Part shown: positions 1 through 36,489 of the stretch, in pieces
Layout of the letters: each line of letters begins with the position of its first letter
Position numbering within the stretch: the first letter of the stretch is position 1
Source of the DNA: a virus
DNA: 39,893 nt
Virus genome (UHGV): UHGV-1364246
Strand: one strand, 5' to 3'
The notes under the pieces: generated by a model
What the model was told of the DNA's origin: nothing
Database searches by the model: none
What the model saw: only the letters and a program-made list of their open reading frames with translations
Translations under genes and position numbers: made by a program

Positions 1-1019
1 GCGCCAGCCGCTTCAGGACGCAGACCACCATGACCCATAGCGTATTTACCAACAATCAGGTCGCCCTGAGCATCGACGTCACGGTCACGTTCCAGCGCCA
101 AGTCACGCAGCTTCACAGTACCCACAGCAGAACGGTGAGAGAACAGACCCACAACGTTGTCCATAGCAACTTTAACGTCGCCAGTAGCAGTTGCCGGGAA
201 TGCGTGTTTCTGACCGGAAGCAATAGTGATACCATCTTCACCACGAGTCTCACCAGCGCCACCTTGTACCAGATGCGGAACTTCAACAACAACGAAGCCC
301 ATCACGTTACGGATGTTACCAGTCTCTGGGTCAATCAGCGCAGCATAGTTAGCAGCGTTAGGCATCAGAGCAGCAAGGATTGCAGAGTAGTTGTCCGGCG
401 TGGTGTAGAAGTAACGGTCGCCAGCAGGAACGTAGTTGGAGGTCAGCTTCGCACGAGCAATGGTCAGTTGACCAATGATTGCTTCACCCAGTTTAGCTGG
501 GGTGTCGAGGTCAGCTTTCTTACCTACTTCAAGTACGGACGCAGTGCCCAGACCAGCAATGTTCTCGTTGGATGCAGCCGGGAGGTTACACAGGATAGCC
601 ATTTCAGCCAGAACCGCACCATCGGCAGCGATAGCCAGAGCTTCACCCAACTGGTTGGAATACTCGCCAGCCACGTCATAGTGGTTCATCGCGTCTTCAA
701 TGTCGAAAATCATCACATCGGCAGTCAGCAGACCATCAATGGTAATCACTTTCTCGGTATGTTTGATACCTTTACGTTTATCGGACAGTCGCTCACCCGG
801 AGCCAGATACACACCAGAGGTGCGACCCATGACCGGGAACTGAGCAGACTTACCGTTCTGAATGGTACGGACAATATGCTTGTCAGCAGTTACAGAGCGG
901 CGAGTGAATGCGGTCAGGACTTCACCAGCAAATACCTTCAGGAACAACGCCAGAGCGTCGGAACTGGATTTGCCTTTACCTTGGTCTGTACCAATTTTCT
1001 GACCCGGAACGTTTGCCAT
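1..1019 (-). CDS. Major capsid protein (gene 10A), N-terminal 339 codons; ORF runs off the window start and continues at 39893
   Basis: Minus-strand ATG at 1017-1019 with AGGAGA 8 nt upstream; translation MANVPGQKIGTDQGKGKSS...LFLKVFAGEVLTAF...KYAMGHGGLRPEAAGA closely matches recalled T7 gp10. Absent from the ORF track because no stop lies in this segment. Confidence 0.9.
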   Translation of the reverse strand, partial: MANVPGQKIGTDQGKGKSSSDALALFLKVFAGEVLTAFTRRSVTADKHIVRTIQNGKSAQFPVMGRTSGVYLAPGERLSDKRKGIKHTEKVITIDGLLTADVMIFDIEDAMNHYDVAGEYSNQLGEALAIAADGAVLAEMAILCNLPAASNENIAGLGTASVLEVGKKADLDTPAKLGEAIIGQLTIARAKLTSNYVPAGDRYFYTTPDNYSAILAALMPNAANYAALIDPETGNIRNVMGFVVVEVPHLVQGGAGETRGEDGITIASGQKHAFPATATGDVKVAMDNVVGLFSHRSAVGTVKLRDLALERDRDVDAQGDLIVGKYAMGHGGLRPEAAG

Positions 1020-1121
1020 ATGATAATTCTCCTATTCAATTGAAAGATAAAGTTTATTACTTGCTGTACGCCCAATCCGTATGGACTGAAGTAATAGGGA
1101 AACCTTGAGTCTGTCTCTTGG

Positions 1122-11676: not shown

Positions 11677-11699
11677 AATCCCTAAGGTGATAGTTTAGG
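11677..11699 (-). promoter_or_regulatory. Variant phage RNAP promoter (phi4-like), CCTTAGGG instead of CTATAGGG
   Basis: Minus-sense CTAAACTATCACCTTAGGGATT; overlaps the stop codon of the 71-aa gene. Confidence 0.55.
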
Positions 11700-15082: not shown

Positions 15083-15115
15083 GCAAAGAAACCCAGCAGT
15101 CCTAAGACCACTGGG
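15083..15115 (-). terminator. Putative early terminator (TE-like) for host RNAP
   Basis: Minus-sense CCCAGUGG-UCUUAGGA-CUGCUGGG hairpin followed by UUUCUUUGC; sits where T7 TE lies relative to the ligase. Confidence 0.5.
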
Positions 15116-15121
15116 TTGACG

Positions 15122-17040: not shown

Positions 17041-17089
17041 AGGGTTAATCATGAAGGCCACGACTCTGAGTCATGACCTTGAGTCTAAT
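17041..17089 (-). ncRNA. RNase III processing element (R1.1-like) between the promoter and gene 1.1
   Basis: Second copy of the ATCATGAAGGCCAC...ATGACCTTGAGTCTA element. Confidence 0.6.
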
Positions 17090-17108
17090 CCTATAGTGAT
17101 AGTTTAGG
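17086..17108 (-). promoter_or_regulatory. Phage RNAP promoter (phi1.1-like)
   Basis: Minus-sense CTAAACTATCACTATAGGATTAGA. Confidence 0.75.
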
Positions 17109-17398: not shown

Positions 17399-20080
17399 TT
17401 AAGCGAATGCAAAGTCTGAAGACAAGATGTCTTCGATATTCAGTTTACCTTTCTTCGGAAGCTCAGGCAACTTGTCGCGCTGACTCTCGTGAAGCTGGTA
17501 TTCGAACTGCTCGTAGAAGTCAAGCAGTACATCGTTGTCGCGGTAGGTCTCGACCATTGTCTCACGGACGCCACGGAACAGATACTCAGCGTCAGCCGGG
17601 ATGGTCCCGAAGCTATCGTGAATCACTGCGAATGACATCACACCATACTTGCGGTGCGTGTGGACTACAGTCTTGCGGAGGTGGCTGCCATCTTGTGAGT
17701 GGACGAAGTTCGGGCTAATGCCTGACTCCTGCTTGTGCTTGTCTAGCTCTTTCTTCGTGCCTTTGTTGACTGTAGGCTGAAGGTTGAATGACCCTAAGAA
17801 CATCAGGTTCAGACGAGTGGTATCCTTCTTGCGGTATTCCTGCCAGACCGGGAAACCATCAGGTGTGACCCAGTGTACTGGAAGGCAAGGCTTCAGGATT
17901 TCACCAGTCTTCTTGTCCTTCACTTCAGCAGCCAGCAGCTTGGCAGCACCTTGAAGCCACTTCATCGCGTCAACCGCAGCAACTACGGTCACACTCACAG
18001 CTTCCCAAATCATCTTAGCCATGAAGCGAGACGCTTGTCTTGGTTCAGTGAACATAGAGCCAGACCCTGAGTCAATCGCTGGCATCACGATGTCCTCGTA
18101 CACTTGGTCTGCGAATCCGTACTCTTTCGACCCGTAGGCCAGAGTCATGACCGAACGCTTAGTTACCTTGCGTGACATGCCGTAAGTCAGCCACTGCCTG
18201 GCCAGCTCTCGTGTCCCCAGCTTGAGGCGCTCGGTAATCTCACCAGTTTTCTTATCCTCGTGAGTCACCATCTCGTTGTCCGTACCGTTAACCAGCAGGA
18301 CTTTAAGCTCCTCCTCAATGCGGTCAGACACGATGCGGTAGATGTCTTGGACCTTACCGGAAGGCGTCAGGTTTACTGCATGTCCACCTATGTGGTCTCG
18401 AAGCATCGCGCTGAAGTGCTGAATCCCAGAGCAGGACCCATCGAAAGCTATCGGCAGCGAGCAGGAGTAAGACAAACCGTGGTGCATTACGCCAGCATAC
18501 TCGAAGCAGAACGCTAGGAAGCAGAACGGAGAGTCTAACTTACCCCACCACTCAATGCTGTCCATCGGTGCCTTAGCGGTAGCCATGATGTTGTCGTGGT
18601 TGTCTTCCACCCACTTGATGCGCTCCTCGAAGGTGACTTTATCAATACCCGCACAGTTTGCACCGTGGACCTTCAGCCATTTGAAACCATCAGCACCAAT
18701 AGGCTTACCGACTGCCAGAGTTAGGAGACCCTTCTGCATGTCGTTACCCTGAGGGTTGAACATCGGCACAGCGTAGACGCGACCACGCCAGTCCATGTTG
18801 TACGGGAACCAGATGGCCTTGAACTGAGAGAACTTGTTCGCTTGGTTAACGATAAAGCTCAGCGACAATCTGCGTGACTGTCGGGCCTTCTCTCGGCGGT
18901 AGATACCAGCAGCAGCCTTCTTCCATTCCTTGAGTTCCTCTTCAGTCTCACCCGCATAGTCTTCAGGCTTCAGCGGCTCCATCTGAGGGATGTCATCAAT
19001 AGGCGTGTTGTTCAACTTCTCTACCATGTTCACCACGTCCAGAACCTTCTTGTTCACCTTCCAAGGCGTATTCTGGATGATATTCACAGCGTCATAGACT
19101 TCAGGCATGTACACGTCTTCATAACGTGCCACCGCAGACTTAGACCCTAAGCGAATCAGTGGTAGTGGTCTGCGACCTTTGGCCCAGTACCCACCTCCTA
19201 CGACACCAGTCCACGGCTTAGGTGGAACGACACAGGGCTGGTAGACTGGAGCGATACCCGCAAGGCTGAATCCTCGTTGTGCCATCTTCTTGACCCAGAA
19301 GTCTGACAGGTGGACCATCTCGACATCAGCCGCTGCATTGCCAGCACCGTAACGCTTAAGCTCGACCAGTTGTGTTGACTGGATGACAATCTCAAGCATC
19401 TTGATTCCAACGTGGACAGCCTCGGTCGGACTCCAAGTTCCCCACGCATCTTCAAGTTGGCCTTGCTCCAGCATGGAGGTCTCAACAGCTTGCATGTAGG
19501 CTTTTTTGTAGGATGCCCCGGCGCGCTTGTTCAGGTTCTCAGCTATCGCCTTCTTGAAGTGCTCCTTCTCCTTATCACGGATGCGACCGAAGCGGATTTC
19601 ATCCTCAAGTGTGCGACCTATCGCGGAGGCCATCGGTGTAATCGGTATCCCTTCAGGCTTGACCAGCTTGGAGAGGATGACCTTCAGTATGATGACCGCA
19701 GCAGACTCACAGGAGATGCGCAGAGAGCGGTCCTTGACGGCCTTCTCTTCAGTGCTCAACATGGTGAACGCTACGCTAGGACGAGAGGTTGACAGCTTAC
19801 CGTCTGGACCTTCGTGCCACTCCTTGACGGCTTGCGCAATCTTAGGGACCAGAGTCTGCATCAAAGGCTTGGCGACCTGATTGTCTGCCAGTTCCCCGCG
19901 CTCAGTCTGTCGCTCAAGGTTCTTGATGAAACGTCGCTCGCCTTCAGTGTATGCCTCATGCTCAAGCTGAAGCTGTTTGACTGCAAGGTCTTGCCCGTAG
20001 TGGTCAGCCAGCAGGTTAAACGGCTCAATGGCGTTCGACACATCAGAGAAGTCGTGTTTGTCAATAGAGATGACGCTCAT
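17399..20080 (-). CDS. DNA-directed RNA polymerase, single-subunit (T7 gene 1-like)
   Basis: 893 aa; collinear with recalled T7 RNAP (PYNMDWRGRVYA, DGSCSGIQHFSAMLRD, HDSFGT, C-terminal FAFA); specificity-loop region reads LMFLGSFNLQPTVN versus T7 LMFLGQFRLQPTIN. Confidence 0.97.
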   Translation of the reverse strand: MSVISIDKHDFSDVSNAIEPFNLLADHYGQDLAVKQLQLEHEAYTEGERRFIKNLERQTERGELADNQVAKPLMQTLVPKIAQAVKEWHEGPDGKLSTSRPSVAFTMLSTEEKAVKDRSLRISCESAAVIILKVILSKLVKPEGIPITPMASAIGRTLEDEIRFGRIRDKEKEHFKKAIAENLNKRAGASYKKAYMQAVETSMLEQGQLEDAWGTWSPTEAVHVGIKMLEIVIQSTQLVELKRYGAGNAAADVEMVHLSDFWVKKMAQRGFSLAGIAPVYQPCVVPPKPWTGVVGGGYWAKGRRPLPLIRLGSKSAVARYEDVYMPEVYDAVNIIQNTPWKVNKKVLDVVNMVEKLNNTPIDDIPQMEPLKPEDYAGETEEELKEWKKAAAGIYRREKARQSRRLSLSFIVNQANKFSQFKAIWFPYNMDWRGRVYAVPMFNPQGNDMQKGLLTLAVGKPIGADGFKWLKVHGANCAGIDKVTFEERIKWVEDNHDNIMATAKAPMDSIEWWGKLDSPFCFLAFCFEYAGVMHHGLSYSCSLPIAFDGSCSGIQHFSAMLRDHIGGHAVNLTPSGKVQDIYRIVSDRIEEELKVLLVNGTDNEMVTHEDKKTGEITERLKLGTRELARQWLTYGMSRKVTKRSVMTLAYGSKEYGFADQVYEDIVMPAIDSGSGSMFTEPRQASRFMAKMIWEAVSVTVVAAVDAMKWLQGAAKLLAAEVKDKKTGEILKPCLPVHWVTPDGFPVWQEYRKKDTTRLNLMFLGSFNLQPTVNKGTKKELDKHKQESGISPNFVHSQDGSHLRKTVVHTHRKYGVMSFAVIHDSFGTIPADAEYLFRGVRETMVETYRDNDVLLDFYEQFEYQLHESQRDKLPELPKKGKLNIEDILSSDFAFA

Positions 20081-20149
20081 ACTTAAAGTCCTTGTTATTA
20101 GTCTTTCACTTAAAGTCTCTTTGGTCTTTCACTTGGAGTCTTAGACCTT

Positions 20150-20172
20150 GAGTCCTATAGTGATAGTTAAGT
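20150..20172 (-). promoter_or_regulatory. Phage-type promoter about 75 bp upstream of the RNAP gene (TTAACTATCACTATAGGACTC)
   Basis: Matches the -17..+2 core; GGA start as in this phage's class-II promoters; followed by a half R-site motif GACTCAAGGTC. Confidence 0.5.
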
Positions 20173-20177
20173 AAGAA

Positions 20178-20506: not shown

Positions 20507-20932
20507 TTAATTCTCCTGAAGATATTTGAGTGCGCTTGCCAGAAGCTCTGGCGAATCTTTAAATTTTCCTAGACCAATGTTACACGATGCACACAATAAA
20601 CCTCGCACCTTTCCAGACTTATGACAGTGGTCTACGGCTAACCTTCTACCTGTCTCACAAGCACTACCGCAGATTTTGCACCCACCGCCTTGACCTTCCA
20701 GCATGGTAGTATATTCACCCTCCGTTATTCCATACCTAGACCTCAGGTGATAGCCTCTCTCCGTGCTTCGTGCTCTTTTCAATGAGTCGCCATTCCTGTG
20801 TTGTGACGTAACGACCGATGACACTTGACAGGGCTTGCAATATGTCTGTAGTCCGTCCCGCCTAGCCTTGTTCCTGCCAAACATAGTAGCATCCTTAGTC
20901 TCTCCACATTTGGCGCAGGTCTTTTCCATCAC
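20507..20932 (-). CDS. Endonuclease VII-family (HNH-like) protein with N-terminal zinc ribbon
   Basis: 141 aa; CAKCG...CKPC zinc ribbon, then LAVDHCHKSGKVRGLLCASCNIGLG, typical of the Endonuclease_7 family. Confidence 0.65.
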   Translation of the reverse strand: MMEKTCAKCGETKDATMFGRNKARRDGLQTYCKPCQVSSVVTSQHRNGDSLKRARSTERGYHLRSRYGITEGEYTTMLEGQGGGCKICGSACETGRRLAVDHCHKSGKVRGLLCASCNIGLGKFKDSPELLASALKYLQEN

Positions 20933-21126: not shown

Positions 21127-21560
21127 AGTGATTTCCGTTTAATACAGTCGTATATCCCATACCCTATCAGCCAGATAACTGGCGCTAGACATACCCAATA
21201 TCCCACACCCATAGTTACCTCCTATTAATGCAAGTGGTAATCTTTGAGGCCACCTATCAGTTAGATGACCTCTCGCCTATCACTCAGTACCCGCCTGTTA
21301 GCGTTATGGTCAGGCTATGGTGATTAGCCACGTAGCAAGCCCCGCGCTTCATCATCTCGTAGCAACCATCGTAGAACGCCTGTTCACTGCTATAAGTTAT
21401 CTGGTACATGTTTACTTGTCCTCAGCGTGTAAGCTGTCGTGTATGAGCTTGCGGCCCTCATAGACCGCCTTCAGGAGACGCATAGTCGCATCGTGGTTTA
21501 ATTGCCCGGTCTTGACCATAATCCGGGCGTTGATGATGTGGTGCTGGCAGAGACCATAAG

Positions 21561-22085: not shown

Positions 22086-22270
22086 CTTGTTTATCCTATA
22101 GTTAGTGACTATCAGTCAGGGCCTTCAGATGTAGACTCAAAGACCCTGTAGTTAGTCGCTATCGGCGCACATTAAGAGTTTATCCAGATTGTTAAAGAGC
22201 ATTCGCGTTGGCTGTCGTCGCCGTGCTATCCCGTTTCAGTGTTGGGACTCACTAATCTTGCCTGCCGTGT

Positions 22271-22299
22271 AAGTTACTACAGTCAAACCAGCTTGTCAA
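22271..22299 (-). promoter_or_regulatory. Sigma70-type early promoter (A-series-like): TTGACA, 17-nt spacer, TAACTT
   Basis: Minus-sense TTGACAagctggtttgactgtagTAACTT. Confidence 0.45.
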
Positions 22300-22425
22300 C
22301 CACTTTCTTAGCTCGCTTGCTGTAGTAACCTACCATCTTACTTAGTAGACCAGATATTCGCGCTGGTCACTCCGCATAGCCGATGTAGTTTATCAGTTCC
22401 GGCTCGCTGTACTGCTTGGTGAATC

Positions 22426-22454
22426 ATACTACTTTAAGTCTTACATCTTGTCAA
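22426..22454 (-). promoter_or_regulatory. Sigma70-type strong early promoter (A1/A2-like): TTGACA, 17-nt spacer, TAGTAT
   Basis: Minus-sense TTGACAagatgtaagacttaaagTAGTAT; upstream block TAAGTAGACAGCCTGATAAGTCG resembles recalled T7 sequence near A2. Confidence 0.6.
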
Positions 22455-22584
22455 CTACTTTCTGTCATCTGCCTGTTGTTCTTACGACTTATCAGGCTGT
22501 CTACTTAACCGTGATGACCCGGCGTCTTCACTATCCGGTGGTTGCCGTGTCGTGTTGACGTAAGCTATTAAGCCATAGTCTAGA

Positions 22585-22607
22585 CCTATAGTCAATAGGT
22601 AATTTGA
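22585..22607 (-). promoter_or_regulatory. Degenerate phage-promoter-like sequence near the left end (phiOL-like)
   Basis: Minus-sense TTACCTATTGACTATAGGTCTAG; only the ACTATAGG core is conserved. Confidence 0.3.
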
Positions 22608-22719: not shown

Positions 22720-23045
22720 TGACTGTAGGTGTTGGTGTCTTATGGTTGAGACTGTAGGTTAGTGACTTATGGTCTGATACAGATAGAGACTCAAAGAAGA
22801 CCCATAGTCCCAACCTATCGTCCTGACCATCAGCCATAGCCTAGACCTATCGTAGACCTAACGTCTTGACCATTGGTCCAACCTTATGATAGACTGGGGT
22901 AGGGCCTTTGGTCTGGACTGAAAGAGGGCCTATGGGGAGACTTGAGGTTCTTGAACTGTGAGATGTGGTCTCAAACTTTTGGTCCAAAACTCATCGTCAT
23001 TACTGTAGGTCACAGCCACTGTAGGTCAAGGACCGTAGGTCAGGC
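22720..23045. repeat. Genome-end region: collapsed terminal repeat flanked by arrays of the short direct repeat (C)YGTAGGT; inferred physical left end at about 22963
   Basis: Five copies of ctgtaggt/ccgtaggt (22723, 22752, 23003, 23019, 23033), analogous to T7 ACCTAAAG arrays; minus-sense TCTCACAGT...CCCCATAGG at 22963 downward resembles the first bases of T7. Confidence 0.5.
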
Positions 23046-23547: not shown

Positions 23548-23570
23548 CTTCCCTATAGTGATAGTTAAGT
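23548..23570 (-). promoter_or_regulatory. Phage RNAP promoter near the right end (phiOR-like, GGGAAG start)
   Basis: Minus-sense CTTAACTATCACTATAGGGAAGA. Confidence 0.75.
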
Positions 23571-26085: not shown

Positions 26086-26139
26086 TTAGTGTTAACCATA
26101 AAGGCCACTACATATAGTAATGACCTTGAGTCTAACACT
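26086..26139 (-). ncRNA. RNase III processing element (R18.5-like)
   Basis: Third copy of the CCATAAAGGCCAC...ATGACCTTGAGTCTA element, between genes 18 and 18.5. Confidence 0.6.
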
Positions 26140-36437: not shown

Positions 36438-36466
36438 AAAGTCTCCTTATAACCTTAAGGGCCTAT

Positions 36467-36489
36467 AGTCCCTATAGTGATAGTTAAGG
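36467..36489 (-). promoter_or_regulatory. Phage RNAP promoter (phi13-like, GGGACT start)
   Basis: Minus-sense CTTAACTATCACTATAGGGACTATAGG; a partial duplicate of the core (CTATAGG) follows. Confidence 0.75.

Follow-up and report, generated by a model that had tools for sequence, protein, structure and literature searches.

A predicted phage-polymerase promoter directly upstream of the RNA polymerase gene in a Kayfunavirus genome

The window, i.e. the whole stretch of DNA that was analysed (39,893 bases), is a complete Kayfunavirus genome (K1F-like, Studiervirinae, T7 group) with its genes on the minus strand. A terminal repeat of about 179 nt is present as a single copy. Since this repeat lies in the interior of the window, the record is a circularised, circularly permuted assembly of a linear genome, in which the phage promoter phiOR (+1 at 23553) consequently appears some 590 nt before the physical left end. 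The major capsid gene (minus strand) spans the window ends. A 337-aa open frame antisense to it (30-1043, plus strand) is most likely a codon-bias artefact and no gene. Identity of the early region to the closest records is about 92%, with about 80% of the region aligned.

The gene under study, gene 1, encodes a single-subunit T7-type RNA polymerase that is 58-63% identical to the T7-, T3- and K11-type polymerases. It is separated from an upstream gp0.38-like ORF by a 97-nt intergenic gap. This gap contains a predicted phage promoter, here called phi1; the TGA stop of the gp0.38-like ORF lies 5 nt before promoter position -17. The region around phi1 is matched over at least 80% of its length by 222 phage records, and 168 of these are 95-99% identical to it, nearly all being Kayfunavirus. 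Three host-type early promoters were located by mapping the features of phage EcoDS1 onto the window, and one of them was also recovered by a consensus scan. Past the early promoters, the minus strand has no terminator-like hairpin before the early terminator TE, which is located downstream of gene 1.3. In the early region, a 141-aa endonuclease VII / HNH-type gene (20507-20932, minus strand; Pfam Endonuclease_7, E = 2.8e-26) directly precedes the gp0.38-like ORF. The alignments of the closest relatives (Peacock, CLB_P1) break off at its edge; therefore, this gene looks like a mobile homing-endonuclease insertion. The features of the locus are collected in Table 1.

Table 1. Features at and around gene 1 (positions in the window)
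Feature	Position	Strand	Basis or detail
Four canonical RNase III-like hairpins	cores 26126-26102, 21271-21247, 17079-17055, 9716-9694	-	AGGTCAT ... GTGGCCT
Terminal repeat, one copy	22963..22785	-	EcoDS1 features mapped onto the window
Host-type (sigma-70) early promoters, three	22595..22562, 22454..22417, 22299..22263	-	92-97% identity to EcoDS1 'host RNAP promoter' features
Upstream early ORF, gp0.38-like, 108 aa	20178..20504	-	PHROG 7066, function unknown
Predicted promoter phi1, -17..+6: ACTTAACTATCACTATA up to the start, then GGACTC	20172..20150	-	Core match, profile score and EcoDS1 identity
Irregular 58-nt RNA hairpin, predicted	20163..20106	-	-16.4 kcal/mol in 76-nt context, z = -2.3
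75-nt leader of the predicted phi1 transcript	20155..20081	-	37% GC vs 50% for the genome; 64% purine
ACTCAAGGTC	20153..20144	-	Equals part of the 5' arm in three canonical hairpins of the genome
21-nt direct repeat, two copies, AGACTCCAAGTGAAAGACCAA and AGACTTTAAGTGAAAGACTAA	20141..20121, 20118..20098	-	18/21 identical, 23 nt apart
Gene 1, single-subunit T7-type RNA polymerase, 893 aa	20080..17399	-	Pfam RNA_pol E = 1.9e-106, RPOL_N
phi1.1, +1 at 17091, canonical RNase III-like hairpin directly after	17068..17108	-	Next phage promoter after phi1
Early terminator TE, downstream of gene 1.3	15117..15090	-	EcoDS1 feature mapping and terminator scan

A sequence-only reading of the window had placed a phage-type promoter about 75 bp before the start codon of the polymerase gene, and such an element was found there on the minus strand. 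The sequence TTAACTATCACTATAGGACTC occupies 20170..20150, and its predicted start by T7 numbering is G 20155, which is 75 nt before the ATG at 20080. The core of phi1 from -16 to +2, CTTAACTATCACTATAGG, equals that of the other phage promoters save one or two positions. The same core occurs at nine other minus-strand sites, with +1 at 36472, 29196, 23553, 17091, 15045, 14069, 5374, 2165 and 1127, and CTWAACTATCACT[A/G]TAGG is common to all ten. An eleventh site (+1 at 11682) is slightly deviant. All eleven are on the minus (coding) strand and coincide with the promoters annotated in EcoDS1 as phiOR, the pre-gene-1 promoter, phi1.1, 1.6, 2.5, 4, 6.5, 9, 10, 13 and 17. The bases of phi1 (ACTTAA at -17..-12, TATA at -4..-1 and GG at +1/+2) follow the layout of the T7 group, which has an AT-rich stretch at -17..-13, a TATA melting region at -4..-1 and a GG start.

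In a leave-one-out profile built from the other nine strong sites, phi1 scores 26.8 bits. The other strong sites reach 28-38 bits; the maximum over 200 shuffled genomes is 19.1 bits and that of the plus strand is 1.6 bits. The rank of phi1 as the lowest of the ten strong sites is owing to its flanks at -19..-17 and +3..+6. A chance match is ruled out by the profile scan, the shuffles and the conservation across loci described below, and 20172..20150 is probably a promoter for the phage's own RNA polymerase. It lies upstream of gene 1 in the same orientation. The minus strand is free of terminator-like hairpins from 23700 down to TE at 15117, hence none lies between phi1 and gene 1. Nothing above 3.1 bits occurs between phiOR and phi1 in the profile scan, and no phiOL is annotated in EcoDS1. 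Two other details of the promoter set were observed. A weak second promoter-like site (15.2 bits, 5345, minus strand) is located 29 nt downstream of phi6.5, and at phi13 (36462-36479, minus strand) the sequence ACTATAGG is duplicated (CACTATAGGGACTATAGG).

The arrangement was compared across 80 loci with relatives of the polymerase (100% to 58% amino-acid identity). A promoter profile was derived separately for each locus, and the promoter positions were taken relative to the gene 1 ATG. An own-type promoter, its +1 at -75 to -93, is present before gene 1 in 20 of the 20 loci from Kayfunavirus (at least 88% identity) and Citrobacter phage CR8 (Caroctavirus, 78%). In the T7-, T3- and K11-like loci, about eight promoters were detected per locus, and none of the 53 loci has one of its own type within 400 nt. 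The nearest sites in that group are isolated, at -617 and -972, and the usual phiOL-type promoter of the group is about 2.2-3.4 kb upstream of gene 1 (about 2.6-3.4 kb in T7-like loci). Some non-Kayfunavirus loci carry own-type promoters in the early region, well before gene 1, that are distinct from the usual phiOL position, i.e. the T3-like locus L037 (-617 and -1569 from the gene 1 ATG), L041 (-972), L031 (-1388) and L057 (-1330). One other locus (L084), which is probably gh-1-like judged by its promoter motif, has TTAAAAACCCTCACTTAAAG upstream of gene 1 (about -104 to -78 relative to the ATG). The two other promoter-like sites of its locus equal this one up to -5 and differ from it in the start region, so that L084 is possibly a further lineage with a promoter before the polymerase gene.

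Across the 20 loci the bases just upstream of phi1 vary and the consensus core stays identical. In lineage B (L012, L013, L014, L020 and L022), the gene 1 promoter has A and not T at -2, where the other promoters of the lineage have T in nearly all cases. This substitution could mean that the gene 1 promoter of lineage B is weakened.

The site before gene 1 follows the promoter set of its own phage in three lineages and changes together with the specificity loop of the polymerase. In the window, the motif for the specificity region (about -12..-8) is CTATCACT and the loop is RLNLMFLGSFNLQ. The GW1-like Kayfunavirus loci (L019 and L040, from Cronobacter phage GW1 and its relatives), whose polymerase shares 88% identity with that of the window, have the motif CCCTCACT; every promoter carries TAAACCCTCACTATAGG, the pre-gene-1 site included, and the loop is the T3-like RLDLMFLGTFRLQ. 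This loop has D and R at the positions of T7 748 and 756 (T3-type residues), and the GW1-like phages look like a recent specificity switch within Kayfunavirus. CR8 has GGTACACT, with AAGGAAGGTACACTATAGG in every promoter and again in the pre-gene-1 site, and a third, different loop. When the K1F specificity loop is placed in T7 polymerase, the chimera is active on a promoter with the K1F-subfamily consensus at -12..-7 and orthogonal to other promoters (PMC3458549). The co-variation with specificity is the strongest evidence for phi1 short of experiment. This three-way co-variation and the clade distribution (20/20 vs 0/53) are the contribution of this analysis.

On this basis, we consider it likely that phi1 is a working promoter for the phage's own polymerase, which would give self-transcription on top of the host-driven early transcription. 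Host RNA polymerase starting at the three early promoters (22595..22263) would produce the first gene 1 mRNA. Once made, the phage polymerase would also start at G 20155, and transcription from phi1 would cover gene 1 and then genes 1.1-1.3. In this way phi1 would close a positive feedback loop, and transcription of gene 1 could continue after the host polymerase is shut off. In this context, a gene 2 homologue is present in EcoDS1. Positive autoregulation of the polymerase, as had been suggested from the sequence, could therefore be brought about by phi1.

The start of phi1 also gives an indication of its strength. A GGA-type start is found in phi1 (GGACTC), in the DNA-metabolism promoters phi1.1, 1.6 and 2.5 (GGATTA, GGACAA and GGACAG) and in phi9 and phi17. 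A GGGA-type start is found in phi4, phi6.5, phi10, phi13 and phiOR. The T7 analogy would accordingly make phi1 a middle-class promoter of moderate strength. Since class II promoters of T7 are weaker and more sensitive to lysozyme-bound polymerase, phi1 would likewise be expected to rank with the promoters on which the phage lysozyme (gp3.5) acts most strongly, and the loop would be capped in this way. In the literature covered, with the original K1F genome paper outside its scope, neither transcript 5' ends nor in vitro transcription nor expression measurements are reported for a Kayfunavirus. We infer initiation in vivo, promoter strength, damping by lysozyme and the benefit to the phage.

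It is also conceivable that phi1 is a real promoter kept mainly for another job, either priming or activation of replication or service as the first middle promoter for genes 1.1-1.3, with self-transcription being incidental. Replication origins of T7 consist of a promoter plus AT-rich sequence, and phiOL of T7 is able to serve as a secondary origin. Kayfunavirus is without a phiOL-type promoter near the left end. The leader is AT-rich, with only 2.7% of the 75-nt windows in the genome having a GC content as low or lower, and it contains one T7-primase-type site (TGGTC, plus strand, 20122). However, one 5-nt primase motif is the chance expectation and nothing else links phi1 to replication. 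As for genes 1.1-1.3, a single promoter follows gene 1 in the window vs two in T7-like loci, which is in line with another job for phi1, but the dedicated phi1.1 (+1 at 17091) already precedes these genes. Any transcript from 20155 must cross gene 1 regardless of its purpose. It is therefore unlikely that self-transcription is only a by-product.

The leader itself has several features. It begins with GGACTCAAGGTC, which contains ACTCAAGGTC, and a Shine-Dalgarno-like AAGGA is located at 20093..20089. The sequence-only reading mentioned a direct repeat of two copies in the leader. The repeat is present at that place and is larger than noted, since the two exact copies of AAGTGAAAGAC (20134..20124 and 20111..20101, minus strand) are contained within a 21-nt unit. 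No further copy of the 10-mer AGTGAAAGAC exists in the genome, with about 0.02 copies expected per shuffled strand, and the 10-nt GACTTTAAGT is also found twice. A loose form of the motif, AGT-N(2-4)-ARGAC, was considered as a genome-wide binding site and rejected; its 14 minus-strand hits (about 5 expected) are scattered over the genome and not confined to the leader.

The half RNase III motif reported in the leader was described accurately, as only part of a 5' arm is present. ACTCAAGGTC is identical to the corresponding part of the 5' arm in three hairpins of the form ACTCAAGGTCAT...GTGGCCTT, with cores near 26126, 17079 and 9716; folding of these gives z of about -3. The fourth hairpin, near 21271, has the AGGTCAT...GTGGCCT core in common with them. 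One canonical hairpin is in the early region and one is directly after phi1.1. T7-type RNase III sites are irregular hairpins of roughly 20 bp, and at the other sites of the genome their conserved arms are AAGGUCAU ... GUGGCCUU. From these the gene 1 leader has only ACTCAAGGTC, and the matching 3' arm GTGGCCTT is absent from it. A canonical RNase III site in the gene 1 leader is ruled out since the 3' arm is missing. Processing by RNase III may still occur at the leader.

These features raise the question of whether the sequence is conserved because it supplies the 5' arm of a processing hairpin to the early transcripts made by host polymerase, as a counterpart of R1 of T7, and not for initiation by the phage polymerase. 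The T7-, T3- and K11-like loci have a strong hairpin at the same position just before gene 1, which corresponds to the place of the R1 RNase III site of T7. In the window, the leader starts with the 5'-arm element of the three canonical hairpins, and a 58-nt hairpin is predicted whose 5' arm takes in promoter bases -8..+2 (3 of 200 shuffles fold as well). The bottom helix of this hairpin (UCACU/AGUGA) needs bases upstream of +1, so that the whole hairpin would form only in transcripts arriving from upstream; a 96-nt transcript from +1 folded alone is no better than shuffled sequence (z = +0.5). Lineage B has an 11-nt perfect inverted repeat, TATCACTAAAG / CTTTAGTGATA, between promoter bases -10..+1 and a segment of the leader. 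It takes in the variant base at -2, which is suggestive but amounts to a single event.

However, the pairing of the 58-nt hairpin covers only -8..+2, and positions -12..-9 follow the consensus of each lineage (CTAT, CCCT and GGTA). The hairpin has no canonical 3' arm and is kept in lineages A and C, with other folds in lineage B and CR8. No compensatory changes are seen in it; the observed substitutions are few and are in loops or break pairs. Rfam gives no match in the whole window, nor at a permissive threshold around phi1. Searching a viral contig collection for AAGGACTTTAAGTATG gave Kayfunavirus contigs that were already in the comparison and some unrelated chance hits, and added no power to detect covariation. 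As a possible alternative RNase III site, the 58-nt hairpin has weak statistics and shows no covariation. A pairing of the upstream edge of the promoter with the start codon (inverted repeat 20176..20167 / 20086..20077) is likely chance because it depends on a T that most relatives do not have. Since -12..-9 tracks the polymerase specificity of each lineage, conservation for RNA pairing alone is ruled out, and it is very improbable that phage-polymerase initiation plays no part in keeping this sequence. The promoter role and an RNA-hairpin role are not mutually exclusive.

The layout CACTATAGGA..ACTCAAGGTC is common to phi1 and to phi1.1 with its canonical hairpin, and it fits an origin of phi1 from a promoter-plus-processing-site cassette. 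The loss of the second half of the hairpin (the 3' half) and the lowest score among the strong sites would suit a silent or vestigial leftover of such a cassette after duplication, but this reading of phi1 is hardly credible, since the core of a relic would not stay identical over 20 loci with variable upstream bases and would not be re-tuned to three polymerase specificities.

With phi1 taken as a functional promoter, its position in the 5' arm of the leader hairpin has a further possible consequence. Host- and phage-made gene 1 mRNAs would differ in 5' structure, and the 21-nt repeat might act as a processing or translation switch that puts a brake on the loop. If so, host read-through mRNA would have the full hairpin, with a possible processing site, and phage-made mRNA would start inside the hairpin. 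For the phage-made transcript, folding predicts that the near-palindromic ACUUUAAGU copy in the repeat pairs with the other copy, beside the start codon. Such a switch is quite unlikely.

A phage promoter before gene 1 is already known. In EcoDS1 (EU734172, Kayfunavirus), a 'phi' promoter is annotated at 2244-2266, 70 nt before gene 1, and is identical at 23 of 23 positions to 20172..20150 of the window. In CR8 (HG818824, Caroctavirus), a 'predicted promoter' with CR8's own sequence is annotated at the equivalent place. Both are the same element as phi1, but they are sequence-based annotations without a functional test or discussion, and the window phage is a different isolate from either. The genome paper of phage Sparklingdew (2026) lists a repeat CTWAACTATCACTATAGG, one copy of which is at the 3' end of the gene numbered immediately before the polymerase gene (PMC13298934). 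In LUZ100, a T7-like phage of Pseudomonas, a transcription start was mapped at a phage-specific phi1 directly upstream of the polymerase gene, and a positive feedback was proposed in which host-driven first transcripts are followed by self-amplification (PMC10134795). LUZ100 and the window phage are thus alike in having a phage-specific promoter right before their own polymerase gene. The two also differ. LUZ100 is a distant, temperate-like relative, its start has been mapped whereas that of the window phage is predicted, and a MarR-like repressor has been proposed to gate its loop. The early region of the window shows neither a repressor nor a lysogeny module.

The comparison with T7 requires a correction. 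The sequence-only reading took it that gene 1 of T7 is transcribed by host RNA polymerase only, which is too strong because phiOL is upstream of the whole T7 early region. Self-transcription is therefore formally possible in T7 too, and the lineage-specific feature is the position of the promoter 75 nt upstream of gene 1. The other part of that reading, a phage promoter upstream of gene 1, stands on the sequence, the comparison of loci and the lack of an intervening terminator. T7 and the window phage share the 23-bp promoter with its specificity region at -12..-8 and GG start, and both have a promoter of their own upstream of gene 1, which in T7-like genomes is phiOL at about -2.7 kb. The class II cassettes of T7 (phi1.1A/B-R1.1 and phi1.3-R1.3) consist of a promoter followed by an RNase III hairpin, as at phi1.1 of the window. 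The T7-, T3- and K11-like loci differ in having only a hairpin before gene 1, where the window has a promoter 75 nt from the ATG and a half-canonical hairpin. Kayfunavirus, unlike T7, has no phiOL. A synthetic counterpart is the T7 'autogene', which Dubendorff and Studier reportedly engineered in 1991 by cloning the T7 polymerase gene under a T7 promoter. As with phi1 and gene 1, the polymerase transcribes its own gene from a cognate promoter; however, this construct is tolerated only under tight repression and with lysozyme, whereas the window arrangement is natural and in a lytic phage. In such a phage, runaway expression of the polymerase would cause trouble only briefly.

In the textbook account of T7 the hand-over is strict, in that the phage polymerase is produced by way of the host polymerase and afterwards takes control of transcription. 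In the K1F-like phages and CR8, a large and common group of coliphages, the polymerase gene appears to be wired directly to its own promoter. Sister genomes already have the promoter annotated and LUZ100 has a mapped equivalent, so that this case serves to confirm the arrangement and to show its taxonomic spread more clearly, and is not a discovery. The arrangement could serve as a natural example for synthetic self-amplifying polymerase circuits. Many Kayfunavirus isolates are candidates for therapy, and the finding may have a modest relevance to the infection timing of such phages. Self-wiring predicts that the polymerase would build up with different kinetics and with less dependence on host transcription.
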